Virus record (IMG/VR): IMGVR_UViG_3300045993_000757
Span: 1 to 64,000 of that record
Origin: a virus
Direction: 5' to 3' (one strand)
Length of the DNA: 64,000 nucleotides
Numbering within the stretch: the stretch's first letter is position 1; each line of letters starts with the position of its first letter. This document shows, one piece after another, positions 47,905-64,000 of this stretch. The notes below the pieces were generated by a model that was given only the letters and a program-made list of their open reading frames with translations, was not told the origin of the DNA and ran no database searches. The translations under genes and the position numbers were made by a program.

Positions 47905-50900
47905 ATGCCCAAATATCCGCTGACCTTGCCGAACGGACAGTCGTTCGACATCGACTCGCCGAACGAGCTGTCCCAGTCCCAGCTCGCCGAAGCCCAGGGC
48001 CAGCTCATGGCCCAGTTTGGACAGGCCCAGCCCGACCCGACTCCGGTCGCCGAACCGTCGTTGTCCAATAACGCCTTCGATCCGATCGGTGCGGTGCGCG
48101 ATGCCATTGGACAGGAACTGCCTCCGCCAGAGTTCGGCGCCATGGATGTCCCTGGGGCGGCAGTTCGATCCACCATGGGTCAACTCGGTCAGGGGATGTT
48201 CAAGATCGGGCTTGGAGCCATGGGTCTGACTACGGGCCCATTGGTTGATGTGCTGACGGGAAACACACCCTTCCAGCAGAACCCAAGCTGGGAAACCCTG
48301 GGAGAAACGCTCAATCCCGCGAAGTCCTACGCCCGGTTTAAGCGCGGCGCCATGGCGCAGAATATAAATGACCTAGCGCGTTCTTCGGTCCCCGTCTGGG
48401 AAAGGCAGAACGATCCTTCCATCGCCCAGCCCACAGGGTTCACGAAGTCAGCCATCGATTTCACGGGGGGCGTTGCTTCCTCCGTCATCATGTCCCTTCC
48501 CGCCATGGTCACCGGGATCCCCGGGCTCATCGGGATGTCCATGGCCACGTTCGATCCGGCCTTTGAGGAGGCCCAGTCGAAGGGCGCAGGCGACACAAAA
48601 GCTTTCGCGCACGCCGTCCTTTCCACGGCGTTCGAAGCGGGATCCGAATACGTCGGATCGGCCTGGGCCAAGACCGCCCGGATGATGGAAACGATGCCGT
48701 ACCTACCGCCGACCGTGCGGAAGTACCTGTTCCAGGCAGAGCGAGGCCCCGTGGAGGATGCCGCCAAGGAAGCTGCCAGGAGTTTCTGGGGGACACTCGT
48801 TGGCACAGCCAGCAGGAAGGACGGGATCCACCTCGGCACCGCGACGATGGAAGGGCTGGAGGAAGTCTTCAGCACCGTGGCCCAGCGCATGAGCGCGGCC
48901 ATGCTCTACGACCCGACCCAGATCACGAACATCGGCGACCTGATGATGGACGCCGGGATGTCGTTCCTGGGCGGTGCCGCGGCGGGTGTGGCCTTCACCC
49001 CGCTGGAGCGCCGTGTCGCGCGCCAGAAGGTCGGCGAGGCGATGCGGAGCGGTGTCTTCGAGCAGTACCGCACGGCCCTGGAAGCCGCCAAGAAGGACGG
49101 CGCGTACCGACCTGAGGACCAGAAGGTCGTCAACGAGGCGGTCACCGGCCGTCGCCTGATGGAGCTTGGGGCTCTCTGGGGCAACACCGACATGGTGGCC
49201 AAGGGGAAGGAACAGCTCGCCGCCGCCACCACGCCCGAAATGGCAGCCGCCACGGAGGCGGAGGTGAAGAAGGCCGCGGAAATGTTCCACGCCGTCCAGA
49301 CCCCGGAAGGAGCGGCGACGGCTCACAAGCTGGCGGTCGATCAGTTCGGTGCGGACAGTCCCCAGGCGAAGAAGATGGCCGAGCTAGTGAATCAGGCCAA
49401 CGAGCACCGGCTGGACATCGCCCGTGCCCAGGCCGTGCAAACCTCCGGCCCCGGCATGAAGTCGGAGGAGTGGGCCAAAGTCGTCACCCAGGAAGGTCTT
49501 TCGCCTGACCGCGTCGAGCTGCACGCCAGCCAGGGATTCCGCGACAACGAGACGGGTCTTCCCACCGAAAATCCCAAGGATTCCCAGGGCCGTCCCAATC
49601 AGGAGCAGGAAGGCTACGTCGATCCGCAGACCGGCAAGATCCACATTTACCAGGGGTCCATCCTGGGCGACATCAACGCCGGCCGGGGATCCCGCCGCGT
49701 CCGCCAGCGTGAGCACTTCCGCCAGGTGTTGCGGGAGGAGGCCGCGCACACGGCGCTTCAAACGCCCCTGGGCCGGAGCCGCCTCAACGCCTACGTCGAG
49801 CACCTTAAGGCGAACGACTCGAAGGCCTACCAGGCGATCGTGGACACGCTGGCAAGGCAAGGATACCACCCCGACATCATCCCCGAGGAGTACGTCGCCA
49901 AGCTCTACCGGCAGCAGTCCTGGTTCCAGCAGAAGGTCGATGACTTCATGCTGGCCCTGCACCGTTGGACCGGCATCGGGAAGCTGAATCACGTTCGCGC
50001 CGGACGCTTGCTGATCCGCAGTCTCGTGGAGCATTCCCGGCAGGGGAACCTTCGCGGGAACGCCGGCGCTTTCCAGCCTGCCAACGCCGCCGCCGATGTC
50101 CGCCAGCAGGAGTCGCGGCTGGACATGGCCAGGATCCGCGCCCTGAACACGGAGGAGGCCAAGGTCATCGCGTCCGGACACGCCGCGATACTGACCCAGC
50201 CCCAGCTAGAGCAGGCGATCCGCGACCTGACGACGCGCTTGGAACTCATGAACCGCCAGGGGATCGGCGGCATGGTCAAGCTGGAGACGGAGCGCGTCCT
50301 GAAAGCGGCCAAGGACGAGTTTGTGGCCCGCGAGAACGTCCGGCGTCAGGCCATCCTGAACCAAGCGACCGCGCCCGTGCAGCCGCCGACGCCCAACACG
50401 CCCCAGGGCGGCACGGCACCTTTCGTTCCGGTCATCGACCAGCAACCCCCGACACCACCCCCCAATGCCCCTGATCAACAGCAGCAGCAAACAGGCAGTC
50501 AGCCAGAACATCCGAACGGAAATGAAGGCGGGCAAGCCCCAGAAGCAGGCAATAGCAATAGCCCTGGCAGTCCAGCGGAGAGCGGAGCAGAAGCGCCGAA
50601 TCCGGAAGAAAGCAAGGTAGCCAGCTACGTTCCGCCGGAGAACCCCGGCCACATTGCTGCCGACCTTTCGACCAAGGTTCAGCAGGGGGATTTGACGCGC
50701 GACGAAGGAACCGCGCTGTCGATCAAGTTTGGGGTCCAGGGCGAGTTCGATCAGTTCATGGCCCTGATCGACAAGGTCGCCGCCCGCGAGGCTTCTGGAG
50801 AGGCTCAGGCGGAACGCGAGGCGCGCAAGGCCAAGATCGACAACATCGTCTCCCGGCTGCTCGTGGGCGATGAGGTGGACGGTGGCATTCTGGAGTCCAT

Positions 50901-53900
50901 CGAACCCAGGGCGGAAGACGACCACTGGTTCGTGGTCCGTCACCCCGGAGGAACGACATCCGCATCCAACGTCCCGCCGATCATCGGCAAGATGTTCGAC
51001 CCGGCCTGGGTCCAGTCCATTGAGTCCCGGAAGCTCACGCGCGAGAAGGTGCTGAAGGCGGAGGAGCTGAAGAAGAAGATCAAGGGCAAGGAGAAGCCCC
51101 AGGATGCTCGGGAACAGGCGGCGGCAGAGGCTCGTGCCAAGAAGGAGGCGTTCGAGCGCGCCGAGGCTGAACGCAAGGCCAAGGAAAAGGCGGACCAGGA
51201 TGCGGCCCGCAACGAGTTCGAGTCGGCTTTCCAGCAGGCGAAGGCCCTGGCTCCTGGCGACAAGGTTGGAAAACGAGTCGTCCAATCCAACAACACCGAG
51301 ACCACGGACATCCAGTTCGAGGGCGAGAACACCCCCGAGGACTACGAGAACGTCGCCGTCTTCATCATGGACGGAAACGACGTGGTGAAGGCTTCAACGC
51401 CACCGCCGGCCGCAGGCAAGACGTTCAAGGTGGGCGACCGAGTTCAGTGGATGGACGGGAAGATCACAAGGACTGGCGTCGTCCGTGAGCAAACCGCCAT
51501 CGGGGTATCAGTCAACGACGATGACTCGGGCAGGAACTACCTGCTGGCTTCGAGTGACTTGACTGAACTCAGTAAGCCCGTTTCGGACCAACCCCAAGCC
51601 CCCGCGATCATCGAGGCGTGGAAGAAGGGGAAGCGAGAACTGGCCCAGCAACTCGCCGATCGACTGCCCGAACCCGGTGACACATGGGCGTTCCGGACTT
51701 CCGACACCGGAAACCTGGCTGGGTATGGTGCCGGGGATTCCACCTTCACCCGAGACCTGACGGTGCGTGGCAAGCCTCTGTGGCAATGGATCAACGAGGC
51801 CCAGGCAGATACCCTTCCGAAACCCGGATCCAACGCCCAGGAGAACAAGCCGGCCGCAGGGATCACCGCGGACAACCTGCACAAGCAGAACCTCCGGATG
51901 TTCACGGGCATCCTGAAGCCCATCATCGAACGTGTCCGAGGAATCTTCGATCGCCTTGAACGGGGGAAGAAAGTCTCCCAAGATGACCATTCGTTCCTCA
52001 GTCGGTACAGGGCTTTTGCCACCGAGAAAGTTAGGTCTCTGAATGAGGGGTTTGGGGATGTCCCCGCGGAGAGCATCGCTCAGAAGTACACCGATGACTT
52101 CGAGGGCATTGCCTTGGCCCGAGATTACACCAAGGCCCAACTGGAGGTGGAAAAGAGGCACCTCACCAAGTTTGGGCAACTGTTTCCGACGGGATCCGAA
52201 ACAGGGAACATCATCTCAGGACTTCTGGGCCGCGTCATGGAAGCGATCAATCGCCATGATGGTGTCCCGATTCCTCGCCTCGCATCCAAGATTCCCAAAC
52301 GTCCTATCCGCAAGCCCTCGACCCGCGAGCGTGCCCCCGACCTGATCGACCTCCTGATCGACACCGTGGGGAAGATCGACCCCAAGCTGATCAAGGAGGC
52401 CAATCCAGACTTCAAGCCCACGGGCGCGGCCCGCCTGCTGTTCAGCCCCAAGGGAACTCCAGCCGACCAGGCCATGCACGCCGTGGTGGGACAGATGGGC
52501 GTCACGGCCGACATGAGCATCGACCAGTTCGCCGAGGCGATAACGGCGGCTGCCAATGGCAGGAAGGCCACACGCAAGGGCTGGGCGGCGGAAGGGGCCC
52601 AAAACGACGCGGATGCCAAGCGCGCCCTGGCGTTCCATGCGTTCCTGGATAAAGAACGCCCGTCAGGTCTTAGCGTCTCCGAGTTGAAGATGGGCGACAG
52701 CTTCACGGTGGACGGAGATCCTTTCTCCGTCATCGGGGTGGAGTACGGCGAGGATGGAGGGCCTTTCTCGGTTACCCTGGACGGCGGGAAGAAGTGGGGG
52801 ACCCAGGTTGTCGATGGGAAGAAACCAGTCACGGTTGATGACGGAAGCTTCGCGGGCGTGAACGGCCCCATTGAGCCGGAGACCAGCAAGCTCCCGTCCG
52901 AAATCGCGGACGAGATTCGTCGAGTGGTTGGATTCATCCAGGAGGTCAGGAACTACCTCAATTCCCAGCTTCAGTGGAAAGACAATCACAGCCGCTTTGT
53001 CGTGGAGGAATACCTCAAGGACAACGCTCAGGCCATCGAAGCCGCTCAGAAGACCATTCAGGAATTCAGAGACGTTGCTCCGACTCACAACATCGACGCC
53101 GAGCTCGTCATCGAGGAACTCGGCGGAGTTCCTGACATCACGCTTCCCCCTGAAAAACCTGCGGGCATCCCAGGCTTCTTCGACGCCATCGAGTCCGACG
53201 AGGACCGGATCGCCCGCGAGCGCAACGAGGCCGAGCAACGCCGCGCCAAGGCCGACGCCGACAAGCTCCGCGACCTGGCCAACAAGCCGCTCAAGGGAAC
53301 TGCTGGCGACCTGGGGCAGGGGGCCCTGTTTGCGGAACCCGGCGACCAGGACTTGTTCGCCCCGCCGCCGGCCGACGTTCAGCCCAAGCGCAAGGCCATG
53401 GACGCGATCCAGGCCAAGGTGGACGCCCAGGACGCCACCAAGCGCGCCAAGATCGAGGAGCTGAAGAAGCGGCTGAAGCCGAACATGGGCGGAGAAGACA
53501 TCACGCCGTTCTCCCTCAAGGAGCTTTCTCCCCAGACCAAGAACGACCTGATCGAACTGTCGGGGCTCTACCTGAGCAGCGACATCGTCTCCTTCGCCGA
53601 GTTCTCAACCAAGCTCATCGACGACTTCGGGGACAGCGTTCGTCCCTGGCTCCAATTCGCCTATGAAAGCTCTCGGTTCTCTCCTGGTGCGACTTACAAG
53701 GGATCAATGGACCCGGCTGATTGGGTCGAACAACTCGCCAAAAAATATGACTCAGGTGCCACTCCGGATCTGGAATCAGATCGCTTCCGAACAACAGGAC
53801 AACCTGGACCCGATCGCGGTCCAACTGTTCAGCCTGAAAACCTCGGACCAGCTCAACCTGGTGATCGACCTGTGGCACCAGGAGATTCGCAAGCTGACAC

Positions 53901-56900
53901 CGGAACCCCTGGTGGCGTCAGCGATCGTGGCGATTCTACCACTGATGCGCGCCCAGCGGGCGGTGAACGCCTTCCTGAGCCAGCGGCCAGCCCTGTCGTG
54001 GAACGTCCGGCAAGCCATCCCGGAACTCAACGGCCTGGACGAAGCGGTGGAACTGGGCGTGCTCGAGTATCGGCTGCGGCGCAATCAGACCTTGGATCTC
54101 CGGAAGCTCCTGTCGTCGCCCCAGACGTGGCAACTCCTCCGCCCGATTTTGGAGCGTACCCCAGCGACAACCCCGTCGCCGACCAAGCCGACGCCAACGC
54201 CCGATCCTACCCCTGGCTCTCCGCCGATCCCGGCAACATAGAGAGCACGCTTCCGATGCTGTTCCCCAGCCAGCGGAAGAACGTCTTCCTGGCGGAGCGG
54301 CGGTTCGCGGAGACCCCGGTGGCAGCCACGCACGCCTCGGGCACCGGCCTGGGCGATCCCAAGCGCGGGATCCTGTTCACCGATGGCACCGGCACCGGCA
54401 AGACCTACTCCGGGGCAGGCATCGTCAAACGCTTCCTCATGCAGGGGAAGACGCGGATCCTCATCGCGGTCCCGAACGCCAACATCATCGAGGCGTGGAA
54501 GTCGGCGATGAAGGACTTGGAGATCCCGCACTTCGTCCTTCCCGACACCAGCACCGCCGCCAAGGGCGTCACGCTGACCACCCAGGCGAACCTCCGAAAC
54601 AACGCCGAGCTCGCCAAGCAGGACTTCGACCTGGTGGTCATCGACGAGTCTCACAACCTCCTGTCCAACGAGGCGGGTGAGGCGAACGCGGGTCTTCGGT
54701 CCTTCCGGATGGTGGCCAACCACCCCGACAGCGTGGAGCGAAAGGCCACGAATGCCATCATCGGGCCTGCCCCGGTCCAGGCGGACTACGCAGGCGGAGG
54801 TGATTTCGCGGCTGCCCTTCACCAGTGGGACCAAAAGCGCATCGACAACATGGCGAAGATCAGCGCCGAGGTGAAGCGGATCAACGAACTGAACACCAAG
54901 GCGCTCTTTCTTTCAGCTACGCCATTCGCCTACCACACCTCGCTCATCATGGGCGACGGGTTCCTCTACTCCCTGCCCGACGACAGTCAGCGAACCGGAT
55001 ACAATCAGCCCAAGGGATTCGACCGGTTCCTCGCCGAGAACCTGGGATGGCGGATGCGAACTGGGAAGCTGAACAAGCCCAGCGCAAACGTGGACACTTC
55101 GGTCATGGAGATCCAACTCCACGACCTGTTCGCCAAGCGCGGGGCCATGCACGGCGTCTCGCTCGATGTTCCCCAGGACTACAGCCGGGAGTTCGTCCTG
55201 GTCCGACCGGCCGCAGCGCAGAAACTCGATGATGGGTTCTCGTTCTTCCGTGGCGGCGAGTCGTACCAGCAGCAGTACCCGATCCTCAATAAGGTCTTCA
55301 ACGAGCTCTGGGACTACAACCACGTCGCCCAACTCCTCGAAGCATTGAAGATGGACTCTGCCATCGAACGCATCCGCCAGCACGTTGCCATGGGCAGGAA
55401 GGTCATCCTGCTCCACAGCTACCTGAAGGCGAAGATCCATGCCCACCCCTTCCGGTTCGAGACCTACCCGCCGGAATTCCTGATGGCTTTCAACGGGGCG
55501 GATCTCAAGGCTGAGATGGACCGTTTCCGGAACGATCATGCCGAGTGGGCCAACATCGTCATGCCCGACTCTGAGCTTTCGTTGGAGAAGATCCGCCGCG
55601 AGTTCGGAGACTCCGTGGTCTTCAACAACGGCAAGGAGGCCCCCCGAAGTCGTGTCGAGGCGGTGATCGACTTCAACCGCGACGGTGGCGGCGTGAATCT
55701 CCTGGTCGGTCAGCTTCAGGCGACCAAGGAAGGCGTCTCGCTCCACGACAAGAGCGGGAAGCACCAGCGCGTCATGATGATGGTCGCGCTGCCCATCCGA
55801 CCCACCGATGCCATCCAGGCCGAGGGTCGCGGTTACCGGATCGGAGTGAAGACCGACGCCATCAACGAGTACATCGTGCTCCACACGATGATGGAGCGGT
55901 TCGCCTTCGCCTCGAAGATCAACGAGCGCGCGGACACCGTGGAAACCCTGGCCCTGGGATCGGACAGTCGAAACCTTCGCGACCGATTCCGCGACGGCTA
56001 CCTCAATGCCATCGACGCGGATCCCAACGACCAGCAGGGCAAGGGAAGCAAGGAGGCCGACCGCCGCGCCGAGACGATGTCGGACTTCGACCGGGCCGTG
56101 TCCTTCTACTTCGCCCGCACGAAGAAGAACTCCCGGACCAAGAGCGCCGAGGGGCTGGACTACTACCCCACGCCGGAGCCGCTGGGGCTCAAGATGGTGG
56201 AATGGGCTGACCCAAGCGCCGGGGACGCCCTGCTGGAGCCTTCCGCCGGCCACGGGGCCATCGGCCAGTGGTTCCCCAACATCGGCCAGCACGCCTACCT
56301 GGAACCCTCCGCCGAGCTTCGCAGCGAGCTGGGAATCAAGGTGAAGGCGGGGACCGTCTACTCGACGACGTTCGAGGACTACCACATCACGAACAAGTTC
56401 GACGAGATCGTGATGAACCCGCCGTTTGGTCGGGCGGGGGCCACGGCGTTCGCGCACCTCGCCAAAGCTTTCCGACATCTGGTAATGGGCGGGCGTATCG
56501 TCGCCCTGGTTCCCGATGGGGCCAACACGAACGACAAGATCGTCGAACTCCTAAGGGCCGGGAATGATCCCACGGGGCACTATGACGGCCGAGTGTTGCG
56601 GGCGGACATATCGCTTCCTTCGTCCGTGTTTGAACGGGCCGGGACCAGCGTTCGGACTCGCCTGCTGATCTTCGATACGCCGACCTATTCCGATCTCCAC
56701 TCCGGCCACCGGATCGGAGAAGGGCTTGAGAACCTGTTCCCGCCCACGTTCACGACCAAGATCGAGGCCAACACCATCCAGGAGTTGTTCGACCAGATCC
56801 GCGACCTGGACGTTCCGGCGCGAATCCGGAAGCCCAAGCCCGCCCCAAGCAATCCGCTGACCACACGGGACGCCATCATCCAGACGACATCCCAGGGCCC

Positions 56901-59900
56901 CGGCGTCGTTCCCACCCGCCAGCAGTCCACCACACCCCAGCTTCCTCCGTTGTTCAAGCTGGGTCAGACGACGCACGCGAAGAAGGGGATCCAGTTGTTC
57001 GTCGCCACGCTGACCAAGAGCTTGAGCGATGCGAACTTCTCCGTAGTCAACCGGATCGCCAAGAAGCACGACGGATACTACTCGGGGTACAACAAGGCCA
57101 ACGCGATCCCAGGATTCCAGTTCGACGCCGCGGATCAACGAGACGATTTCGTCGCCGAGGTTGAGCGGGCACTCCGACCTCCCGACGAATCCACTCCGAC
57201 CTACTCCCTGAAGGCGCGCGATCCGTTTGAGGTCAACGACATCACGCGCACCCGCGGGGCCATCATGGCTTCCATCGGAGTGCCGCACGTCGCGGATGCC
57301 ATGACGATGACCCCCGACGAGTTCGCCGCCGGGAAACATCCGACTGTCCTGGGGTTCTCTGGCAAGTCTCTATGGCAAGCCATCAACAGCGGGGATCCCA
57401 CCCTTTCGGCGTTGCTCCGTTCGCCCGCCTATTCGCTCAAGGTCCGTCCGGTGCAGTCGGACCTGTTCGACCGGGAGACGACGCGGAGCATCGCCCAAGC
57501 CTACACCTCGGCGGGAACGTCGCTGCCGAACAACCGCCCCGCCCTGTTCTCGGTGATCGACAACGGGGACGGGTGGAAGGCGCAGAGTCGAAACATCGAC
57601 TTCGGGGCCGGGAAGTCCTTGTGGATGGACGACGCCCTCAAGAGCCGGGGCGTGGAGAACCTTCGGTACGATCCATTCAACGAGGCCTCCGCCGTCAATG
57701 AGGCCACCGTCGATTCAGCTCTCCGCGCCCCGGCCGACACCTTGACCGTCGCCAACGTGCTCAACGTGGTCGCGCCGGAGGCTGCGTTGGATGAGACCAT
57801 CCGTCAAACCGCCCGCCTGCTGAAGCCGGACGGCAAGGCGTACTTCTGGGTCCACTTCGAGAACGGCAAGAAGTCCGGCGTTCCCCGCGGTCGCCCCGAC
57901 TCCTGGCAATGGCACCATAAGGCCGAGTGGTACGTCCCACACCTGAGCCGCTTCTACGGAAAGGTCGAGACCATCGGCCAGAACATGATCGTGGCCTCGC
58001 AGCCGATCCCCGTGGTGGGCGAATGGTCGCCGTCCGCGGAAGGGCCCACGTTCAGCCTCAAGCCGCGCGCCTACGACCTCACGCCGAACGGTGGGAATCC
58101 CATGGTGCCGCGCATCGGCTACCTCACCGGGAAGCACAGCGCCAAGATCCTCGCTCGCGCCCAGGCCCGCGGGGACATCGGGGCCCTGATTACGCCGACA
58201 TCGTCGCACTCATTGGACACGGCCCGGTCCTACCCGTTCTACGCCGTGGACAATGGCGTGTTCGGTAAGGCCGGGTTCAACGAGCCCAAGTTCAACGCCC
58301 TCCTGAACAAGATCCAACCGGGCGATCCCAAGGTCTTGTTCGTCGTGGCCCCCGATGTCCTGGCCCACCTTCCCAATGGCCAGGTGGTCGGGGATGCCGC
58401 GGCGACCATCGAGCGGTTCAAGGATTGGGGCCCTCGGATCCGGGAGCGCGGTCTTCCCGTGGCTTTCGTGGCCCAGGACGGGCTGGAGGATCGGTTCAAC
58501 GACATCCCATGGGACGGTATGGACGTGCTGTTCATCGGCGGGTCCACGGGCTGGAAGCTGGGCGAGTTCGCCGATCCGGAGCGCCGGCGGCGGTGGGAGT
58601 ATGTGATGGGCGAGGCGCACAACCGCGGCATCCCGATTCACATGGGGAGGGTGAACTCCAACGAGCGCCTGACGGGCCACGCCGTGGACATGGCTGCGTC
58701 CACCGCGGACGGGACCCTCCTGGCGTTCGGGGAGGACATCAACTTGCCCAGGCTCGAATCATGGCTGGATCAGTTGAACCACGGGGGGCTGTCTTACGCG
58801 GCTCGGAACATGACGGAGTTGGGAAGATTGCCCACGAGGCGGGAGATTATCGACTTGGCCAGTGATCGGAATCTTGCCTATGAAACCCTCGGGGCATTTG
58901 AGCCCGCCCTGGACGAGATCAACGCCACGCGCAACGAACTTGGGCTGCCCCCAATCGCACCCCGCCAGTTCGATCCGGGCCAAGCTGAGTTCGGTTTCTC
59001 GCTGAAAAAGCCAGTCCGGATGTTCCGCAGCTACGCCGAGTTGGAAACGGGGGCTCTCCAGTTCGAGTCCTGGCGCGACTGGTACTCGGCCGACAAGGCG
59101 AACATAGACTCTATGTTCGGTAAGGATGCCCCGCTGTTCGCACAGGTTCTCGCTGCCACGTCCATCCAGACTGAGGTTCCCGATAATGTCGGTCGAGCCT
59201 TGCGCGCCTACATTGAGATGATTCAGGGAGCGCCATTCACTGGTCAGATCCCATCGGCTAGGGTCAATTTGGAGCGAATCCGGGATGGAGAGTCGATCCG
59301 TGGCCCCAAGATAGAACCTTTTGCTCGGGCCATCATGGGCGATGAAAGCGCGATCGCTGTTGACAGGCACGTCATCCGCGCGATCTTCGGCGAGGACGCG
59401 GTCGCTACTCCGGCACTCATAAGAAAGGCACAAGATGTCATTCGCAAGATTGCGGCGAAACACGGGTGGACTCCTCGGCAAACCCAGGCCGCAGTCTGGG
59501 CTTGGAAAATCAATCTCAACGGGAAAACCCCCCAACGATACCTCGACTCCCTCACTCCCGATCGCTTCGCTAGCACAATCCGTGGATCAGGAGTTGAAGG
59601 ACTCGTTCGATCGCGCACGAATTTTGGACAGGGAACTCAAGCAGGCGTTGGGACCGGGGCGGCAGACACCGGATCCGGAGTTCAAACGGGAAATGAAACC
59701 CCCGCTTACAGCCTAAAGACCCCGCCCGATCACCGGCCGCTCGCGGAGGACATCAACGCTTTCCGCACCGAGTTCCCCACGGCCCCGCCGATCGTCGTCA
59801 ACCAGGACGATGCCGCGCGCGGGGCCCGGTTCGAGAATGGCGAGATCGTGGTCGCTGAGACCATGATGCCCAGCAGCCGCACCGGTCGCCGGGCGGAACT

Positions 59901-62900
59901 CCTGGCGGCTCTCTCAGACGCCGGTCGGCTGAACATTCCCCAGGGATTCTGGGATCGAAGCTGGAAGGGTCTTGTCGCGGCTTCCCCCGTCCTCATCGAG
60001 GAGACACGCAAGTCCATTGGCGGGAACATCGACACCCAAGAAGGCCGCAATGCCATCCTGGCTGAGTTGGTGAAGCGGACATCAAAGTCCTCCGCCCCCG
60101 TGGGATTCGTGCGTTCGGCCCTGGCGTTCTTCCGTGGCCTCGACCAGACGAAGACCCCGGCCTACATCATCGCGGCCATGCAGCGGACGCTGGACCGGGT
60201 GACCGACCAGTTCACGCCACACCAGGCGGGGCCGCAGGGCGAGGCGGACTTCGGACCCACCGACACGCTCCACCAGTACATCGGCGGTCTCAACCGCGAC
60301 GGATCACAGCGGGCGAGTGGCGTTCAGGAACAGGTCTTCGCCGACCAACACTTCGCCCTTTGGAACTCCTTCGAGCCTGAGCTTTCCCGCATGGAGGCGC
60401 GGCTCTCCGATCTTCAGACGGGGCTCCTGGAGGACCACCAGTTCGAGAGTGTCCGCCAGCGGATGCAGCAGATCGCCGACACGGTCCTGGCAACGAACAT
60501 TGCGAACCACCGGCGCGCGGCCCTGAACATCGCCGCCGATGACTTCATCGACCAAGTCCAGGAGGTGAATCCTGACCTCCTCACCCGCGAGGACATCGAG
60601 AACCACAGCATCTATCTCAACGAGGTGAAGGCCCGGCGAGCCATGTCGCTCATGCAGAACATCGAGCGGAACAAGGCGACTCGCGATTACCTGACGGACA
60701 ACCTGCCCCAGTACCCGATTCAAACCCTGAACCGCCGCATCTCCCGGCAGCAGATCCGCCTGTCTGACATCGAGCAGAACCACCCCGAAATGTACGCTCG
60801 TGCCTCCGAGTTGAAGTCGCGGGTGGAAGGCGATCCCGCGGCCCGCGCCGCCGCCGATGCCATTTCCGACCCGGCCATCCAGGAGTGGGTCGAGGTCATC
60901 CATCAGATCCGCGAGAGCGGGACCCAGCCGCGCGCCCTGGCAGCCATGCCGGTGGCCATCCAGAATTCCGCCGCCGTCGCCGCCGGGGTGTTCCAGTACA
61001 AGGCCAGGGCCATGCGGCGGGAGCTGGGGGATCGCCTGGTTCGAACGACCGACACCGCCCTTCGCGCCCTCAACAAGCTCGTCGAGGAACGGCGCAATTC
61101 CCGGCAGAAGGAAGGTCAGATCGAAGTCGCCATGGTGGAGATGATCCAGGCGGCACGCGGGGACGCCGGGGCCAGCGGTGGCCTCTACACCCTGGAGGAA
61201 GCCAAGCGGATGCGGGACATCGGGGACCGCGCCATCGCCCGGTTTGCTCGATTCCTGGGGGCTTCAGATCCCGGAACGCTGCCGGCTGAGCTTCGGGATG
61301 CCTTCATCGAGGACAACCTGATGTCCATCGGGATCGACCCGGCGACCCTGAGCGGGCCCAACTCGTTCGATCTCGACCGGATCGCCACCGATGCCGGGAT
61401 CTCGCGGGAAGCCTTCCTTCAGATCATGGAACTGGCGCGCACCTCGCGCCCCTTCCAGAACATGGTGGTCGCCCTGGCCGACGAGGCCGACGAGCGCGCT
61501 GAGACCAGCATCCTCAACGCCATCCAGCGGCTCCAACGGGTCCGCAACGAAGTCCTGAGCCGCCCCAGGGATCCGGTGGACACCACCGGCCTGACCCCCA
61601 AGGAGGCGCGCATCGCCATCGCCCGATCCGAACGTGCCATCATCCGGCAGGCGAACCAGGAGGCGCTGCTCTCCGCGGCCCCGTTCCTGCGCTCCCTGAA
61701 GCAGCAGACCCTCGAACTCAAGCAGTCGAACCGGTCGATGGACACGCAGATCGAGCGGTTGGAACGCGAGCTTCAGACGATCCAGAACCTCTCCGACATG
61801 GCCAACGCCGTGGACGGAGCGGCCCACGAGCTGGCCCCCGACAACTTCGGGGTGGCCGAGATGGTCTACCAGACTTCGGACGGCGTCTTCATGGCGGAGT
61901 TCCTGACGGCGGAAGGAACCCAGCCCGGCGTCCGGGTCAGCCCTGGCGAGGAGTATTCGGCCGAGAAGATCATGGAGATCATCCTCTATCGGGACGCGGC
62001 CCTGCGCGCCATCGCTGCCAACGTGAACCCGCCGGAGATCACGCGCGGCTTGGAAGTCGCCGTGGACATGGTCCTCCCGCTGATCGACGCCAACTCGACC
62101 CCCGGATCCATCGGAAAGACCCTGTCCCCGAACGGCCTGTCCGAACAGTGGACGAAGTATCCCATGGGCGTTCGAGCCGCGATGCCCCGCTTGATCCCCG
62201 GCATTTCCGGCCGGCGACTGGCGGAATCCATGGCCACCTACGCCCGTGTCGGAAGCAAGGTCACCGCCATCCTCAACAAGTACCACGCCCGCCGCGTCCA
62301 GTTGCTCAAGGCGGCGATGGACTCGATGAACCTGTCGCCCACGGACGAACTGGCGCGGTCCTCGTTCCGGCAGGTTTACAGCGAGGTGGCCCATCGCCTG
62401 CGCGAACACGGATCCAACGTGGCTCCTGGCGATCAGACGTTCTCCGGAAATCACGGATCCATCGTGACCCCGGAGCTGATCACCCTCCTCCGGTACGACC
62501 GTGAAATCTTCAGGGCCGTCCAGGACATCGTGGAAAGCCTGCCCTACGGCGGCATCCGCGAGTCCATCCCCGGCATGGATGTCCGCCTCATTCGCCCCTC
62601 GGCCGAGACCGGCGACGTGGGCCTGGCCCGGTCAGTGAACAAGGACTTCGAAGTCCCCCTGGCTCGCGCCTATTCCGCCGCAGTCACCCTGGCGACGAAC
62701 CAGCAGAAGGTCACCGGACAGAACGTGATCCCCGACATCACCGCGTTCTGGGACATGAATCCGCACCACATCCTGTTCCACATCCTGGACGCTGGGCGGA
62801 ACGACCTGGCCTTCGCTCGCAATCCGCAGCTTGTGGCCTTGGAGAAGCGATACGCGGCCGACATCCGCGCCGGCCGGGCCCAGGCCCCCAGGACGGTGCA

Positions 62901-64000
62901 GCAGGTCGTGAATGCCCTGACCGCCCTGGCCGGGGGAAGAATCCCGCCCGCGACCGTGGCCAAGCTGTTCAACGAGGAGCTGAACCGTTACGGCAAGGTC
63001 GCCCTGACCCGGAACTCCCTGGAATCCGAGGCCCCCAAGCGTTCCGAGGGGGTTCACATCGGCGAGGATGACACGAACGAGTTCTCGTCCCCCGCGGCGA
63101 AGCTCATCTACCCCTCCGACTTCTACGAGTACGGGGCCAACGGGATCGACATCCGGCAAGCCGTGGAGCGCATGGCGGACCGGGCCCAGGTGGCCATGCT
63201 CGCGGCCATGGAGGATGCCGCCAAGACCCTGAACTCCATCGTCAGCCGCCTCCAAGGTCCGATCCAAGGCATCACGTCCGAGGATCATGACATCGTCCGT
63301 TGGTCCACGCCCAACATGGACAAGTCCACCCTGTTCAAGCGGGTCGCCGCGGCCATCGAGGTGCTCAACGACCGGGCGCGGATGCTGCGCGCCGAGAAGG
63401 CCAAGCTGATCGACACCGGGGTATCCCCTGGAACGCTCGTTCAGCTCATGCGGGCCAACTTCCCCATGATCCTGAGCTGGCCGCGCGCCATGCTGACGAA
63501 CGTGGTGGGTGGGCCCATCGCCTCCGTCTACACCATGGCCGCGGTCTACGGCCGGCCGGCCGCGGTGCTGTTCGCCGCCCTGAATTCCATCGGAAGCATG
63601 GCCACGCTGGCATCCGAGTCGTTCCTGTGGACGGCGAAGAAGCTGGGATTCGATGTCACGGGGGGATCGAGCCCCAACTCCTTCCTTTCGAACCGCGCCG
63701 AGGCTCTGGACTGGCTGGAGTCGGTCGGCCTGGGCGTCACCTCGTACTCCCATGCCGAGATCCAGGAGTTGCAGTCCTATATGCAGGGGCCGGGCCTGAA
63801 GAAGGCGTTCTTCCGCGGGGCCCTGAAGGTCGGGGCCGCAGTCGAGAATGTCCTGGGGCAACACGTTGGCGTCTCCGCCGGCGACCGTATCCTGAACCGG
63901 TTCGCCGCCCAGATCGTCGTTCCCATGACCCTTTGGCGGCTGAAGAAGTTGGCCCTGCGCTGGCAGCAGCGACTTGCCAAGATGGATGTGGTGGCCGGGC
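47905..64000 (+). CDS. giant DarB-like polyvalent ejection protein, >5,360 aa, runs off the right edge
   Basis: Frame 1 translated by hand without stops from ATG 47905 (MPKYPLTLPNG) to about 60.2 kb; the track lists no closed frame-1 ORF anywhere downstream. Motifs: DGTGTGKT/DESH/SAT/QAEGR helicase, LEPSAG/NPPF MTase, DFGAG/NVLNV MTase, DNG/APDV/HMGRVNS/ADGT, LAATS/GPKI/VDRH. Confidence 0.9.
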   Translation, partial: MPKYPLTLPNGQSFDIDSPNELSQSQLAEAQGQLMAQFGQAQPDPTPVAEPSLSNNAFDPIGAVRDAIGQELPPPEFGAMDVPGAAVRSTMGQLGQGMFKIGLGAMGLTTGPLVDVLTGNTPFQQNPSWETLGETLNPAKSYARFKRGAMAQNINDLARSSVPVWERQNDPSIAQPTGFTKSAIDFTGGVASSVIMSLPAMVTGIPGLIGMSMATFDPAFEEAQSKGAGDTKAFAHAVLSTAFEAGSEYVGSAWAKTARMMETMPYLPPTVRKYLFQAERGPVEDAAKEAARSFWGTLVGTASRKDGIHLGTATMEGLEEVFSTVAQRMSAAMLYDPTQITNIGDLMMDAGMSFLGGAAAGVAFTPLERRVARQKVGEAMRSGVFEQYRTALEAAKKDGAYRPEDQKVVNEAVTGRRLMELGALWGNTDMVAKGKEQLAAATTPEMAAATEAEVKKAAEMFHAVQTPEGAATAHKLAVDQFGADSPQAKKMAELVNQANEHRLDIARAQAVQTSGPGMKSEEWAKVVTQEGLSPDRVELHASQGFRDNETGLPTENPKDSQGRPNQEQEGYVDPQTGKIHIYQGSILGDINAGRGSRRVRQREHFRQVLREEAAHTALQTPLGRSRLNAYVEHLKANDSKAYQAIVDTLARQGYHPDIIPEEYVAKLYRQQSWFQQKVDDFMLALHRWTGIGKLNHVRAGRLLIRSLVEHSRQGNLRGNAGAFQPANAAADVRQQESRLDMARIRALNTEEAKVIASGHAAILTQPQLEQAIRDLTTRLELMNRQGIGGMVKLETERVLKAAKDEFVARENVRRQAILNQATAPVQPPTPNTPQGGTAPFVPVIDQQPPTPPPNAPDQQQQQTGSQPEHPNGNEGGQAPEAGNSNSPGSPAESGAEAPNPEESKVASYVPPENPGHIAADLSTKVQQGDLTRDEGTALSIKFGVQGEFDQFMALIDKVAAREASGEAQAEREARKAKIDNIVSRLLVGDEVDGGILESIEPRAEDDHWFVVRHPGGTTSASNVPPIIGKMFDPAWVQSIESRKLTREKVLKAEELKKKIKGKEKPQDAREQAAAEARAKKEAFERAEAERKAKEKADQDAARNEFESAFQQAKALAPGDKVGKRVVQSNNTETTDIQFEGENTPEDYENVAVFIMDGNDVVKASTPPPAAGKTFKVGDRVQWMDGKITRTGVVREQTAIGVSVNDDDSGRNYLLASSDLTELSKPVSDQPQAPAIIEAWKKGKRELAQQLADRLPEPGDTWAFRTSDTGNLAGYGAGDSTFTRDLTVRGKPLWQWINEAQADTLPKPGSNAQENKPAAGITADNLHKQNLRMFTGILKPIIERVRGIFDRLERGKKVSQDDHSFLSRYRAFATEKVRSLNEGFGDVPAESIAQKYTDDFEGIALARDYTKAQLEVEKRHLTKFGQLFPTGSETGNIISGLLGRVMEAINRHDGVPIPRLASKIPKRPIRKPSTRERAPDLIDLLIDTVGKIDPKLIKEANPDFKPTGAARLLFSPKGTPADQAMHAVVGQMGVTADMSIDQFAEAITAAANGRKATRKGWAAEGAQNDADAKRALAFHAFLDKERPSGLSVSELKMGDSFTVDGDPFSVIGVEYGEDGGPFSVTLDGGKKWGTQVVDGKKPVTVDDGSFAGVNGPIEPETSKLPSEIADEIRRVVGFIQEVRNYLNSQLQWKDNHSRFVVEEYLKDNAQAIEAAQKTIQEFRDVAPTHNIDAELVIEELGGVPDITLPPEKPAGIPGFFDAIESDEDRIARERNEAEQRRAKADADKLRDLANKPLKGTAGDLGQGALFAEPGDQDLFAPPPADVQPKRKAMDAIQAKVDAQDATKRAKIEELKKRLKPNMGGEDITPFSLKELSPQTKNDLIELSGLYLSSDIVSFAEFSTKLIDDFGDSVRPWLQFAYESSRFSPGATYKGSMDPADWVEQLAKKYDSGATPDLESDRFRTTGQPGPDRGPTVQPENLGPAQPGDRPVAPGDSQADTGTPGGVSDRGDSTTDARPAGGERLPEPAASPVVERPASHPGTQRPGRSGGTGRARVSAAAQSDLGSPEAPVVAPDVATPPPDFGAYPSDNPVADQADANARSYPWLSADPGNIESTLPMLFPSQRKNVFLAERRFAETPVAATHASGTGLGDPKRGILFTDGTGTGKTYSGAGIVKRFLMQGKTRILIAVPNANIIEAWKSAMKDLEIPHFVLPDTSTAAKGVTLTTQANLRNNAELAKQDFDLVVIDESHNLLSNEAGEANAGLRSFRMVANHPDSVERKATNAIIGPAPVQADYAGGGDFAAALHQWDQKRIDNMAKISAEVKRINELNTKALFLSATPFAYHTSLIMGDGFLYSLPDDSQRTGYNQPKGFDRFLAENLGWRMRTGKLNKPSANVDTSVMEIQLHDLFAKRGAMHGVSLDVPQDYSREFVLVRPAAAQKLDDGFSFFRGGESYQQQYPILNKVFNELWDYNHVAQLLEALKMDSAIERIRQHVAMGRKVILLHSYLKAKIHAHPFRFETYPPEFLMAFNGADLKAEMDRFRNDHAEWANIVMPDSELSLEKIRREFGDSVVFNNGKEAPRSRVEAVIDFNRDGGGVNLLVGQLQATKEGVSLHDKSGKHQRVMMMVALPIRPTDAIQAEGRGYRIGVKTDAINEYIVLHTMMERFAFASKINERADTVETLALGSDSRNLRDRFRDGYLNAIDADPNDQQGKGSKEADRRAETMSDFDRAVSFYFARTKKNSRTKSAEGLDYYPTPEPLGLKMVEWADPSAGDALLEPSAGHGAIGQWFPNIGQHAYLEPSAELRSELGIKVKAGTVYSTTFEDYHITNKFDEIVMNPPFGRAGATAFAHLAKAFRHLVMGGRIVALVPDGANTNDKIVELLRAGNDPTGHYDGRVLRADISLPSSVFERAGTSVRTRLLIFDTPTYSDLHSGHRIGEGLENLFPPTFTTKIEANTIQELFDQIRDLDVPARIRKPKPAPSNPLTTRDAIIQTTSQGPGVVPTRQQSTTPQLPPLFKLGQTTHAKKGIQLFVATLTKSLSDANFSVVNRIAKKHDGYYSGYNKANAIPGFQFDAADQRDDFVAEVERALRPPDESTPTYSLKARDPFEVNDITRTRGAIMASIGVPHVADAMTMTPDEFAAGKHPTVLGFSGKSLWQAINSGDPTLSALLRSPAYSLKVRPVQSDLFDRETTRSIAQAYTSAGTSLPNNRPALFSVIDNGDGWKAQSRNIDFGAGKSLWMDDALKSRGVENLRYDPFNEASAVNEATVDSALRAPADTLTVANVLNVVAPEAALDETIRQTARLLKPDGKAYFWVHFENGKKSGVPRGRPDSWQWHHKAEWYVPHLSRFYGKVETIGQNMIVASQPIPVVGEWSPSAEGPTFSLKPRAYDLTPNGGNPMVPRIGYLTGKHSAKILARAQARGDIGALITPTSSHSLDTARSYPFYAVDNGVFGKAGFNEPKFNALLNKIQPGDPKVLFVVAPDVLAHLPNGQVVGDAAATIERFKDWGPRIRERGLPVAFVAQDGLEDRFNDIPWDGMDVLFIGGSTGWKLGEFADPERRRRWEYVMGEAHNRGIPIHMGRVNSNERLTGHAVDMAASTADGTLLAFGEDINLPRLESWLDQLNHGGLSYAARNMTELGRLPTRREIIDLASDRNLAYETLGAFEPALDEINATRNELGLPPIAPRQFDPGQAEFGFSLKKPVRMFRSYAELETGALQFESWRDWYSADKANIDSMFGKDAPLFAQVLAATSIQTEVPDNVGRALRAYIEMIQGAPFTGQIPSARVNLERIRDGESIRGPKIEPFARAIMGDESAIAVDRHVIRAIFGEDAVATPALIRKAQDVIRKIAAKHGWTPRQTQAAVWAWKINLNGKTPQRYLDSLTPDRFASTIRGSGVEGLVRSRTNFGQGTQAGVGTGAADTGSGVQTGNETPAYSLKTPPDHRPLAEDINAFRTEFPTAPPIVVNQDDAARGARFENGEIVVAETMMPSSRTGRRAELLAALSDAGRLNIPQGFWDRSWKGLVAASPVLIEETRKSIGGNIDTQEGRNAILAELVKRTSKSSAPVGFVRSALAFFRGLDQTKTPAYIIAAMQRTLDRVTDQFTPHQAGPQGEADFGPTDTLHQYIGGLNRDGSQRASGVQEQVFADQHFALWNSFEPELSRMEARLSDLQTGLLEDHQFESVRQRMQQIADTVLATNIANHRRAALNIAADDFIDQVQEVNPDLLTREDIENHSIYLNEVKARRAMSLMQNIERNKATRDYLTDNLPQYPIQTLNRRISRQQIRLSDIEQNHPEMYARASELKSRVEGDPAARAAADAISDPAIQEWVEVIHQIRESGTQPRALAAMPVAIQNSAAVAAGVFQYKARAMRRELGDRLVRTTDTALRALNKLVEERRNSRQKEGQIEVAMVEMIQAARGDAGASGGLYTLEEAKRMRDIGDRAIARFARFLGASDPGTLPAELRDAFIEDNLMSIGIDPATLSGPNSFDLDRIATDAGISREAFLQIMELARTSRPFQNMVVALADEADERAETSILNAIQRLQRVRNEVLSRPRDPVDTTGLTPKEARIAIARSERAIIRQANQEALLSAAPFLRSLKQQTLELKQSNRSMDTQIERLERELQTIQNLSDMANAVDGAAHELAPDNFGVAEMVYQTSDGVFMAEFLTAEGTQPGVRVSPGEEYSAEKIMEIILYRDAALRAIAANVNPPEITRGLEVAVDMVLPLIDANSTPGSIGKTLSPNGLSEQWTKYPMGVRAAMPRLIPGISGRRLAESMATYARVGSKVTAILNKYHARRVQLLKAAMDSMNLSPTDELARSSFRQVYSEVAHRLREHGSNVAPGDQTFSGNHGSIVTPELITLLRYDREIFRAVQDIVESLPYGGIRESIPGMDVRLIRPSAETGDVGLARSVNKDFEVPLARAYSAAVTLATNQQKVTGQNVIPDITAFWDMNPHHILFHILDAGRNDLAFARNPQLVALEKRYAADIRAGRAQAPRTVQQVVNALTALAGGRIPPATVAKLFNEELNRYGKVALTRNSLESEAPKRSEGVHIGEDDTNEFSSPAAKLIYPSDFYEYGANGIDIRQAVERMADRAQVAMLAAMEDAAKTLNSIVSRLQGPIQGITSEDHDIVRWSTPNMDKSTLFKRVAAAIEVLNDRARMLRAEKAKLIDTGVSPGTLVQLMRANFPMILSWPRAMLTNVVGGPIASVYTMAAVYGRPAAVLFAALNSIGSMATLASESFLWTAKKLGFDVTGGSSPNSFLSNRAEALDWLESVGLGVTSYSHAEIQELQSYMQGPGLKKAFFRGALKVGAAVENVLGQHVGVSAGDRILNRFAAQIVVPMTLWRLKKLALRWQQRLAKMDVVAG
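50465..50620 (+). CDS. nested +1-frame gene: 51-aa basic protein MPLINSSSKQAVSQNIRTEMKAGKPQKQAIAIALAVQRR...
   Basis: Matches the common small phage protein pattern MPLKKG.S...S.NI..E..AGKPQKQAVAIAL; G/C-ending codons in this frame. Confidence 0.85.
   Translation: MPLINSSSKQAVSQNIRTEMKAGKPQKQAIAIALAVQRRAEQKRRIRKKAR
53747..54241 (+). CDS. nested +1-frame gene: 164-aa helical protein MTQVPLRIWNQIASEQ...
   Basis: Amphipathic sequence with G/C-ending codons where frame 1 is disordered; A-rich leader; alternative start 53663. Confidence 0.75.
   Translation: MTQVPLRIWNQIASEQQDNLDPIAVQLFSLKTSDQLNLVIDLWHQEIRKLTPEPLVASAIVAILPLMRAQRAVNAFLSQRPALSWNVRQAIPELNGLDEAVELGVLEYRLRRNQTLDLRKLLSSPQTWQLLRPILERTPATTPSPTKPTPTPDPTPGSPPIPAT
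59582..59716 (+). CDS. possible nested +1-frame 44-aa ORF (MDQELKDSFDRARILDRELKQAL...)
   Basis: Helical pattern where frame 1 is G/T/S-rich linker; stop TAA lies within CTA-AAG. Confidence 0.4.
   Translation: MDQELKDSFDRARILDRELKQALGPGRQTPDPEFKREMKPPLTA

Follow-up and report, generated by a model that had tools for sequence, protein, structure and literature searches.

A gene nested in the +1 frame of a giant DarB-like phage gene and the possible role of its product at the adjacent helicase

The locus analysed here raises the question whether one stretch of phage DNA encodes two proteins in two overlapping frames and, if so, what the smaller of them does. The window, a stretch of 64,000 nt comprising positions 1 to 64,000 of the IMG/VR virus record IMGVR_UViG_3300045993_000757, carries most of a giant gene for a multidomain protein. 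In a preliminary description, an open reading frame located in the +1 frame of this gene, immediately before its helicase-methylase module, had been taken for the gene of a real helical protein. Database searches, comparison of related loci and structure modelling were here used to follow up this suggestion.

Two reading frames on the same DNA

Terminase and tail genes are located upstream of the giant gene. Pfam matches to the ResIII helicase (2.2e-10, 3.7e-11), to a methyltransferase and to DUF7178 were found in the giant protein, with the Methyltransf_23 and MTS matches below their cut-offs. An SF2 helicase and a methyltransferase are thus encoded in one polypeptide within a phage late operon, as defines a polyvalent, DarB-like gene, and the giant genes of relatives are annotated as 'DarB-like antirestriction'. 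The features of the locus are as follows:

47905–64000 (window part), plus strand: giant polyvalent (DarB-like) gene, continuing to position 65703 of the 75,109-bp record; 5,932 aa.
53530–53689, plus strand: upstream ordered helical domain in the giant frame (…SFAEF…VRPWLQFAY…), common to phage Skulduggery and some, but not all, relatives.
53690–54219, plus strand: disordered linker of the giant protein in the giant frame, assigned from composition and AF2, on DNA shared with the nested gene.
53727–53746, plus strand: leader of the nested start, A-rich and without a Shine-Dalgarno (SD) sequence.
53747–54241, plus strand: nested gene of 164 codons plus TAG, shifted by +1 against the giant frame; its product is a small helical protein and belongs to a new family.
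53747–54157, plus strand: conserved core of the nested protein, residues 1–137 with ten helices, from alignments A1 and A7 and predicted secondary structure.
54158–54238, plus strand: T/P-rich C-terminal tail of the nested protein, the last ~27 residues, absent from the family conservation, pLDDT 70–84.
54220–55989, plus strand: SF2 helicase core with Walker A GTGTGKT, DESH, SATP and QxEGRxxRxGQ (ResIII 3.7e-11, alignment A6), the predicted partner of the nested protein.

The nested ORF begins with the ATG at 53747, directly behind an A6 run, and ends with the TAG stop at 54239–54241, in frame +1 relative to the giant ORF 47905–65703. The third frame contains 7 stops within the 120 codons in which the nested ORF is open, so that this openness is not due to chance. 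The giant-frame peptide of about 53690–54220 is rich in G, P, R, D, S and T (78% polar and 10% hydrophobic residues), whereas the +1 frame peptide is amphipathic with 38% hydrophobic residues, which bears out the swap of order and disorder between the frames that had been proposed beforehand. The decay of the +1 frame into T/P repeats near 54150 was likewise found; family members do not conserve the resulting tail, which seems to have arisen as a by-product of the renewed constraint on the giant frame.

The base composition switches between the frames as well. The GC content at codon positions 1/2/3 is 0.65/0.45/0.81 for the giant ORF overall; counted in the giant frame, it is 0.72–0.84/0.54–0.72/0.38–0.40 in 53700–54149, which is the usual pattern shifted by +1 and confirms the earlier observation that third-position GC tracks the nested frame across 53700–54150. 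In the first 16 kb of the ORF, the part within the window, there is no other long stretch where position 3 of the giant frame is the lowest in GC. The same switch to the +1 frame is present in Pseudomonas phage Skulduggery. Independent pond and wetland assemblies contain a sequence identical to the window with 0 differences, and a sequencing frameshift was therefore ruled out.

The fold predictions for the two products of this DNA differ accordingly. For the +1 frame product, AF2 gave a pLDDT of 92.9 and a pTM of 0.80, whereas the giant frame of the same DNA, modelled on alignment A8, reached a pLDDT of 53.6 and a pTM of 0.14 and had no secondary structure. Over the nested DNA the giant frame is hence a disordered spacer only. 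In distant relatives the in-frame linker is disordered as well, and the helical sequence is not in frame there.

The translation signals give a divided picture. In the window phage no SD sequence precedes the nested ATG, as is the case for most of its other genes, and the A-rich leader is all that is present; the AUG lies in an unpaired loop of the minimum-energy fold, which is itself not significant (z = -0.92). A scan of 53000–54600 for promoters and terminators found none. Among the relatives, SD-like duplexes of -6 kcal/mol or below precede the ATG in 61% of 28 loci versus 10.6% of random positions (p=3.6e-9), and two loci (L007 and L014) carry a stop directly 5' of the nested ATG. Of the translation signal sought since the preliminary description, most relatives thus show SD-like sites, the window phage an A-rich leader only.

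Family of the nested protein and selection on both frames

A database search with the nested protein yielded 74 homologous clusters at E<1e-3. Most members are 120–140 aa long (~125 aa), align from residue 1 and stop near residue 125–140. The start methionine is conserved across the family; residues M1, W9, N10, A13, P65, A72 and P92 are near-invariant, and the core motifs are MxQVPxxIWNxIA, PLLxExxAI, LRxALPE and EAxxLAxxEYRL. The window protein contains no Cys, and most family members have 0–1 Cys, none of which is conserved. The family is mildly acidic with a median pI of 5.2 and therefore not a typical DNA binder. No family entry was found for the nested protein by Pfam and PHROGs searches, and 0 of 40 family members match Pfam TnpV (PF14198) even at E<=5. 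Structure searches were equally sparse in matches: Foldseek against the PDB and BFVD gave none better than E 0.97, the wide VIA-align search gave a best Z of 4.5 to helical bundles, which is uninformative, and the ESM Atlas gave no usable match. A search for a published description of the nested gene found none.

The nested arrangement is kept in nearly all of the loci compared. The small ORF lies within a long ORF, shifted by +1, in 30 of 30 full-length viral, genome and GenBank loci (8/8, 9/9 and 8/8 loci, plus 5/5 GenBank phages retrieved by way of the helicase) and in 22 of 23 metagenome loci, some of which duplicate earlier viral contigs. In these ~50 loci the third frame over the nested span contains 7–17 stops, and the two-frame layout persists over a GC range of 39–69%. 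The giant frame is open in all intact loci, and remnants of nested copies occur only where the giant ORF itself is broken. The carriers are tailed phages that infect Proteobacteria and other Gram-negatives and whose helicase has the GTGTGKT motif; six of them are cultured phages (Klebsiella ZX1, Serratia Parlo, Pseudomonas Skulduggery, Ruegeria 45A6 and two Vibrio phages), and the nested gene is annotated in 0 of the 6. For one family member (P0045) the genomic context was sought in viral contigs and not found.

Closely related loci were compared for their substitutions. Loci L026 and L028 differ at 0/122, 1/122 and 18/122 of the small-frame positions 1, 2 and 3, while in the flanks 24–28% of the giant-frame third positions differ; the pattern is the same for L004 versus L013 and for L015 versus L016. 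Moreover, in 45 of 45 pairs the alignment score of the +1 frame exceeds that of the giant frame, the mean BLOSUM scores being 169 versus 65. Judged from these substitution patterns, the +1 frame of the nested region is under purifying selection, and selection maintains both frames. The conservation on which the preliminary description had made its reading depend is thereby found, as is the real helical protein that it had postulated: the product of the nested frame is a folded helical protein of ~14 kDa whose family is widespread and unannotated, and 53747–54241 is very probably a real translated gene.

Proposed role of the nested product at the helicase

A link of the nested gene to the enzyme module had also been suggested. 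In 23 of 27 loci the Walker A motif is located 172–213 codons 3' of the nested ATG, while the upstream domain varies, and the end of the nested gene invariably precedes the first conserved SF2 helicase motif by ~20 codons. The distance to the helicase is thus fixed as expected, but a gene enclosed in another is held there physically, and its constant position does not count as separate evidence that the two are functionally coupled. Whether the search starts with the helicase or with the small protein, the same 8 GenBank records are returned.

The complex of the nested protein with the SF2 helicase was modelled with ipSAE values of 0.70/0.70/0.69, the best control reaching 0.00. The ipSAE mark is reached by 58 of 80 solved complexes versus 2 of 110 mismatched pairs in the benchmark, a calibration that is only roughly valid for a complex modelled from self-made alignments. 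The partners have a pLDDT of at least 86, and at least 83% of the contacts agree between runs. The modelled site is the ATP/DNA cleft of the helicase, where the QVP N-terminus and the LRxALPE/EYRL motifs of the nested protein are predicted to touch the P-loop and motifs II, III and VI. On the helicase side, conserved catalytic motifs are over-represented in the interface (p=1.5e-5); the interface on the small protein is not more conserved than its remaining residues (p=0.30). On this model, the nested protein probably binds the helicase core. The earlier idea of an inhibitor or chaperone of the adjacent enzyme fits the predicted complex, and an inhibitor or safety catch is a tentative reading of it, as a static model cannot separate inhibition from activation.

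The following mechanism is proposed. Ribosomes would initiate internally at the conserved AUG on the giant late mRNA and produce a separate polypeptide, which would dock in the cleft separating the two RecA lobes of the neighbouring helicase, in contact with its P-loop and with motifs Ia, Ib, II, III, V and VI. Within the producing cell, the docked protein would deny the helicase-methylase module access to ATP and DNA, and the giant protein would lose it upon packaging or ejection. Such shedding would explain why the protein is a separate chain and not an in-frame fusion like all other domains.

Alternatively, the nested product may be real but serve the helicase-methylase module as an accessory subunit that it cannot do without, as an assembly chaperone or as a packaging adaptor; it would then activate the module or travel with it, instead of blocking it and remaining in the producer cell. 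This is rather unlikely, although the same evidence for a real gene and the predicted binding to the helicase core are shared by it, and in phage P1 the packaging of DarB requires small separate proteins, with ulx adjoining darB. The predicted footprint on the P-loop and motifs II, III and VI is the ATP site, with which an active state is hard to reconcile; a co-travelling subunit would be expected as an in-frame fusion like the other domains; and there is no similarity to P1 Ulx in a comparison of alignment A1 with Ulx by hhalign (probability 0.12%, E 0.49), by which a relationship of the two proteins was rejected.

Less probable still is a product that is real but independent of the helicase, for instance a host-directed effector or regulator, whose position in the linker is historical because it was overprinted when neighbouring genes fused. 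The giant gene contains a further nested +1 ORF (50465–50620), which belongs to phrog_2423, a group of free-standing small phage proteins, so that overprinting of unrelated small genes does occur there; relatives of this ORF were sought among the collected loci and none were found. Furthermore, nested genes move with difficulty, for which reason a conserved position alone proves little, and one database member (P0061, from a Bacillota MAG) is annotated as a stand-alone protein of 557 aa. Against independence stand the perfect co-occurrence of the small protein with this helicase clade in GenBank phages, the complex model, which passes while all controls remain at 0.00, and the restriction of remnant copies to broken giant ORFs.

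The reading in which there is no separate gene, and a chance open frame, compensated frameshifts or sequencing errors, or programmed ribosomal frameshifting account for the observations, can draw on the 61% GC of the genome, where long spurious ORFs are common, and on the A6 run abutting the ATG, but it is highly improbable and is refuted as far as sequence analysis reaches by the persistence of the two-frame layout at 39–41% GC, the selection on the +1 frame, the conserved start Met with SD-like sites and an upstream-abutting stop in some loci, a giant frame that stays open in all intact loci although a frameshifted reading would not need it, the disordered and not helical in-frame linker of distant relatives, and the identical sequence in independent assemblies.

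Taken together, the findings are best explained if the nested gene is translated separately into a regulator, and probably an inhibitor, of the helicase-methylase module beside it, a function suggested by the complex model. This concerns a gene family that standard annotation has missed, without a Pfam or PHROG entry and unannotated in its six cultured carriers, and a clean case of dual coding, in which an ordered protein and a disordered spacer share their DNA in a deep phage clade. Injected helicase-methylase modules are poorly understood, and a predicted direct partner of the helicase ATP cleft, possibly an inhibitor, provides a testable handle, the more so as substitutions exist that would inactivate the nested gene and leave the giant protein unaltered. 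The presence of two nested genes in one ORF suggests how giant polyvalent genes grow. In a broader and doubtful extension, such genes in phages and conjugative elements might grow by read-through of small genes lying in another frame, and those surviving in linkers might be cognate safety-catch inhibitors of the adjacent module, made as a separate chain and left in the producer cell, so that the module becomes active only after injection. If true, delivered phage enzymes would be subject to a logic like that of immunity proteins, one that annotation overlooks since it is encoded in a second frame.

Comparison with known systems

DarB of phage P1 is a virion-associated helicase-methylase anti-restriction protein with small separately encoded partners (Ulx, DarA, Hdf and DdrA), and the giant protein resembles it in both respects. 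However, the helicase precedes the methylase in the giant gene of the window, which is the reverse order, and P1 ulx is a separate downstream gene and not nested. No homologue of the nested protein was found in any frame of P1 positions 1–25,000, which include darB.

In phage lambda, Rz1 is embedded in Rz in the +1 frame of the same strand, and the two products form a physical pair; Rz1 belongs to the lysis system and is a short, proline-rich lipoprotein of the outer membrane. The locus described here shares with Rz1/Rz a complete gene in the +1 frame and on the same strand that lies wholly inside a phage gene, and its product is likewise predicted to pair with that of the surrounding gene. 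It differs from Rz1 in that the nested product is predicted to be a folded cytoplasmic protein of ten helices; the lipobox Cys that characterizes an embedded o-spanin of the Rz1 type is absent, as the window protein has no Cys and hence no lipobox. Unlike Rz, the surrounding gene encodes a polyvalent protein of 5,932 aa, and the overlapped segment is a disordered linker.

A similar division of order and disorder is known from hepatitis B virus, a eukaryotic reverse-transcribing virus in which the polymerase spacer is overprinted on preS/S. In both cases an ordered frame lies over a tolerant disordered spacer of a large multidomain protein. The proteins are unrelated, however, and in the phage the predicted target of the nested product is the neighbouring domain of the very protein in whose gene it is encoded.

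A dual-coding segment in the giant gene

[quoted passage not shown] The giant ORF, with 5,932 codons, closes a late operon that includes terminase and tail genes; its relatives are labelled in GenBank as 'DarB-like antirestriction', 'PLxRFG protein' or 'N-6 adenine-specific DNA methylase'. The overlapping reading frames are:

47905..65703, + strand: giant ORF with a ResIII-type SF2 helicase, methyltransferase signals and DUF7178
53663..54241, + strand: open frame of the nested ORF (ATG at 53747) in the +1 frame of the giant ORF

The preliminary description had reported that order and disorder are exchanged between the frames from ATG 53747 and that third-position G/C follows the +1 frame, and both observations were recovered. 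From about 53690 to 54220 the giant frame is rich in G, P, R, D, S and T (78% polar, 10% hydrophobic), whereas the +1 frame of the same DNA encodes an amphipathic stretch that ends in a T/P-rich tail. The GC content by codon position is 0.65/0.45/0.81 for the giant ORF overall and 0.72-0.84/0.54-0.72/0.38-0.40 in 53700-54149, i.e. the usual pattern displaced by one base; in no other long stretch of the first 16 kb of the ORF, the part inside the window, does giant-frame position 3 have the lowest GC. Since independent assemblies are identical in the nested region, an indel error as source of the +1 ORF was excluded. The observation of the nested ORF was confirmed.

Substitutions were compared among related loci fetched from viral, genome-contig and metagenome data. 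In the close pair L026/L028 the flanks differ chiefly at giant-frame third positions (27.5% upstream, 24.4% downstream), and in the nested region 0/122, 1/122 and 18/122 differences fall on small-frame positions 1, 2 and 3. As read from these substitutions, selection in the nested region protects the +1 protein and tolerates residue changes in the giant frame; the pairs L004/L013 and L015/L016 behave in the same way. For each of the 45 pairs formed by 10 loci, the +1 frame gave the better alignment (mean BLOSUM 169 versus 65 for the giant frame). The giant frame is open in every locus and the third frame contains 7-17 stops, therefore both frames are maintained. The segment is dual-coding, with the ordered small protein as the constrained reading and the giant linker as a tolerant spacer.

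Conservation and predicted structure of the small protein

A complete HMMER search, run with the 140-aa core of the nested protein against 1.84 billion representatives, yielded a family of 74 clusters at E<1e-3. Most of them measure 120-140 aa and align over residues 1 to about 125; the family has a near-invariant Met1 and the motifs MxQVPxxIWNxIA, PLLxExxAI, LRxALPE and EAxxLAxxEYRL. The family is mildly acidic (median pI 5.2), and neither Pfam nor PHROG contained a matching family. A long ORF encloses the small ORF in its +1 frame in 8/8 IMG/VR, 9/9 genome-contig and 8/8 further IMG/VR loci, as well as in 22 of 23 full-length metagenome loci, a set in which some entries duplicate earlier viral contigs; the sole non-nested metagenome locus is a 1.9-kb fragment. 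Because the GC content of loci with the nested ORF spans 39% to 69%, the open +1 frames are not a GC artefact. The nested ORF was identified in all five GenBank phages examined from the helicase side (hmmsearch E 1e-33 to 1e-39) and is annotated in none of them, and tblastn with the copy of Klebsiella phage ZX1 retrieved exactly the same 8 records as with the helicase region. In Pseudomonas phage Skulduggery, whose giant protein has 30% identity in the region, the disordered in-frame linker and the codon-phase switch are also present, and the +1 ORF starts with MYQVP..WNKIA. In the plasmid database the nested gene occurred in a single record, NZ_CP083940.1 (31750-32103, inside an 'LPD38 domain-containing protein'), a 57.7 kb 'plasmid' of Comamonas thiooxydans whose size and non-mobilizable status hint that it is the genome of a phage or phage-plasmid.

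From the family alignment, AlphaFold2 predicted a ten-helix globule (pLDDT 92.9, pTM 0.80), in agreement with the helical protein proposed earlier, versus pLDDT 53.6, pTM 0.14 and no secondary structure for the giant-frame reading of the same DNA and loci. No neighbour stood out in a structural search with the model. Taken as a whole, the nested gene is very probably real.

Three loci (one genome-contig, two metagenome) hold nested-ORF remnants of 32-34 aa, two of them in clearly broken giant ORFs. In the remnants the N-terminal 18 residues are joined to the C-terminal ~14 and the interior is deleted:

L020:8001-8096, in a Pseudomonas thermotolerans prophage, giant ORF truncated to 542 aa
L058:743-, in a 1.2-kb fragment
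L059:2311-, giant ORF truncated to 597 aa, Walker A just 83 codons 3' of the remnant

Fusions of the family domain to other sequence occur in two database members. P0061 (MBP2641197.1, Bacillota MAG, 557 aa, annotated stand-alone) has the domain at its N-terminus, ahead of acidic repeats; in P0045 (Logan contigs) it precedes a 'GARSF..YA..VRPYLKSWY' domain, which lies directly 5' of the linker in the giant protein of many relatives.

The ordered +1 frame with its genome-like codon phase and the disordered giant frame suggest that the small gene is older and the linker the overprint. This idea is supported by the phrog_2423 match of a second ORF:

50465-50620, + strand: second nested ORF, +1 frame of the giant gene, 51 aa, basic

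The match is full-length (E 1.8e-20) to free-standing small phage proteins, to which PHROG assigns no function. The ORF coincides with a local codon-phase shift and, judged by sequence, probably represents another genuine nested gene; the flanks of the fetched loci yielded no copy.

Putative translation start and link to the helicase

In most loci SD-like purine tracts are located 5-12 nt 5' of the ATG, and 61% of 28 loci can form an anti-SD duplex of at least -6 kcal/mol in strength, compared with 10.6% of positions drawn at random from these loci (p=3.6e-9). Read-in from upstream in the +1 frame was excluded in L007 and L014, because a stop codon directly precedes the nested ATG. The window copy, L008, L021 and L022 have an A-rich leader in place of the SD. 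Most genes of the window phage (61% GC) lack a Shine-Dalgarno sequence, and A/C-rich leaders occur in several of them, a possible sign that the host uses SD sites only weakly. As no promoter-like site was found near the nested gene, expression presumably occurs from the giant mRNA, where internal ribosome initiation on the late transcript would release a separate small protein.

In 23/27 loci the nested ATG is followed after 172-213 codons by the Walker A motif GTGTGKT. The nested stop lies ~20 codons 5' of NIRETLPxLxPxQ, the first conserved motif of the helicase; the domain 5' of the linker varies between lineages. A TPFSLK motif, of a type flagged earlier as possible domain-boundary or cleavage marks, is located at 53509-53526, ~75 codons 5' of the nested ATG. 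If the giant protein were cut there, linker and helicase would be on one released fragment.

Modelling of the 590-aa helicase core (21-row alignment) with the small protein (20 rows) placed the latter on the helicase with ipSAE values of 0.70, 0.70 and 0.69 versus 0.00 for all three controls, partner pLDDT of 86 or higher and no less than 83% of contacts common to the runs. In calibration the ipSAE mark was reached by 58 of 80 solved complexes, compared with 2 of 110 for mismatched pairs, counts that are only roughly valid here due to the use of own alignments; the score is unlikely to reflect a memorised structure, because no like complex is known. The predicted helicase footprint comprises the P-loop (54-63), motifs Ia and Ib (85-99, 121, 123), DESH (143-154), SATPFAY (232-238), motif V (504-507) and motif VI (540-542), and is enriched in conserved columns (p=1.5e-5). 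On the small protein, the modelled interface consists of the QVP N-terminus, LRxALPE, E99 and the EYRL helix, residues not significantly more conserved than the rest of the protein. Binding of the small protein to the helicase is a prediction of the complex model.

According to the model, the small protein would occupy the inter-lobe cleft of the adjacent helicase and most likely keep ATP and DNA from binding up to the packaging or ejection of the giant protein. All other functions of the giant gene are fused in frame and the small protein is kept separate, which argues that it must be separable from the delivered protein. The proposal of a real helical protein tied to the adjacent module is supported by +1 conservation, confident fold and complex model; of the roles suggested for it (chaperone, inhibitor or packaging adaptor), helicase inhibitor is the preferred, if tentative, one.

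Comparison with known systems

The literature searches returned no account of nesting within DarB-like or polyvalent genes, and overlapping frames are not mentioned in the survey of polyvalent proteins (PMC5512222). No homologue of the small protein was found in any frame of positions 1-25,000 of P1, a range that includes darB; P1 Ulx is unrelated to the nested small protein.
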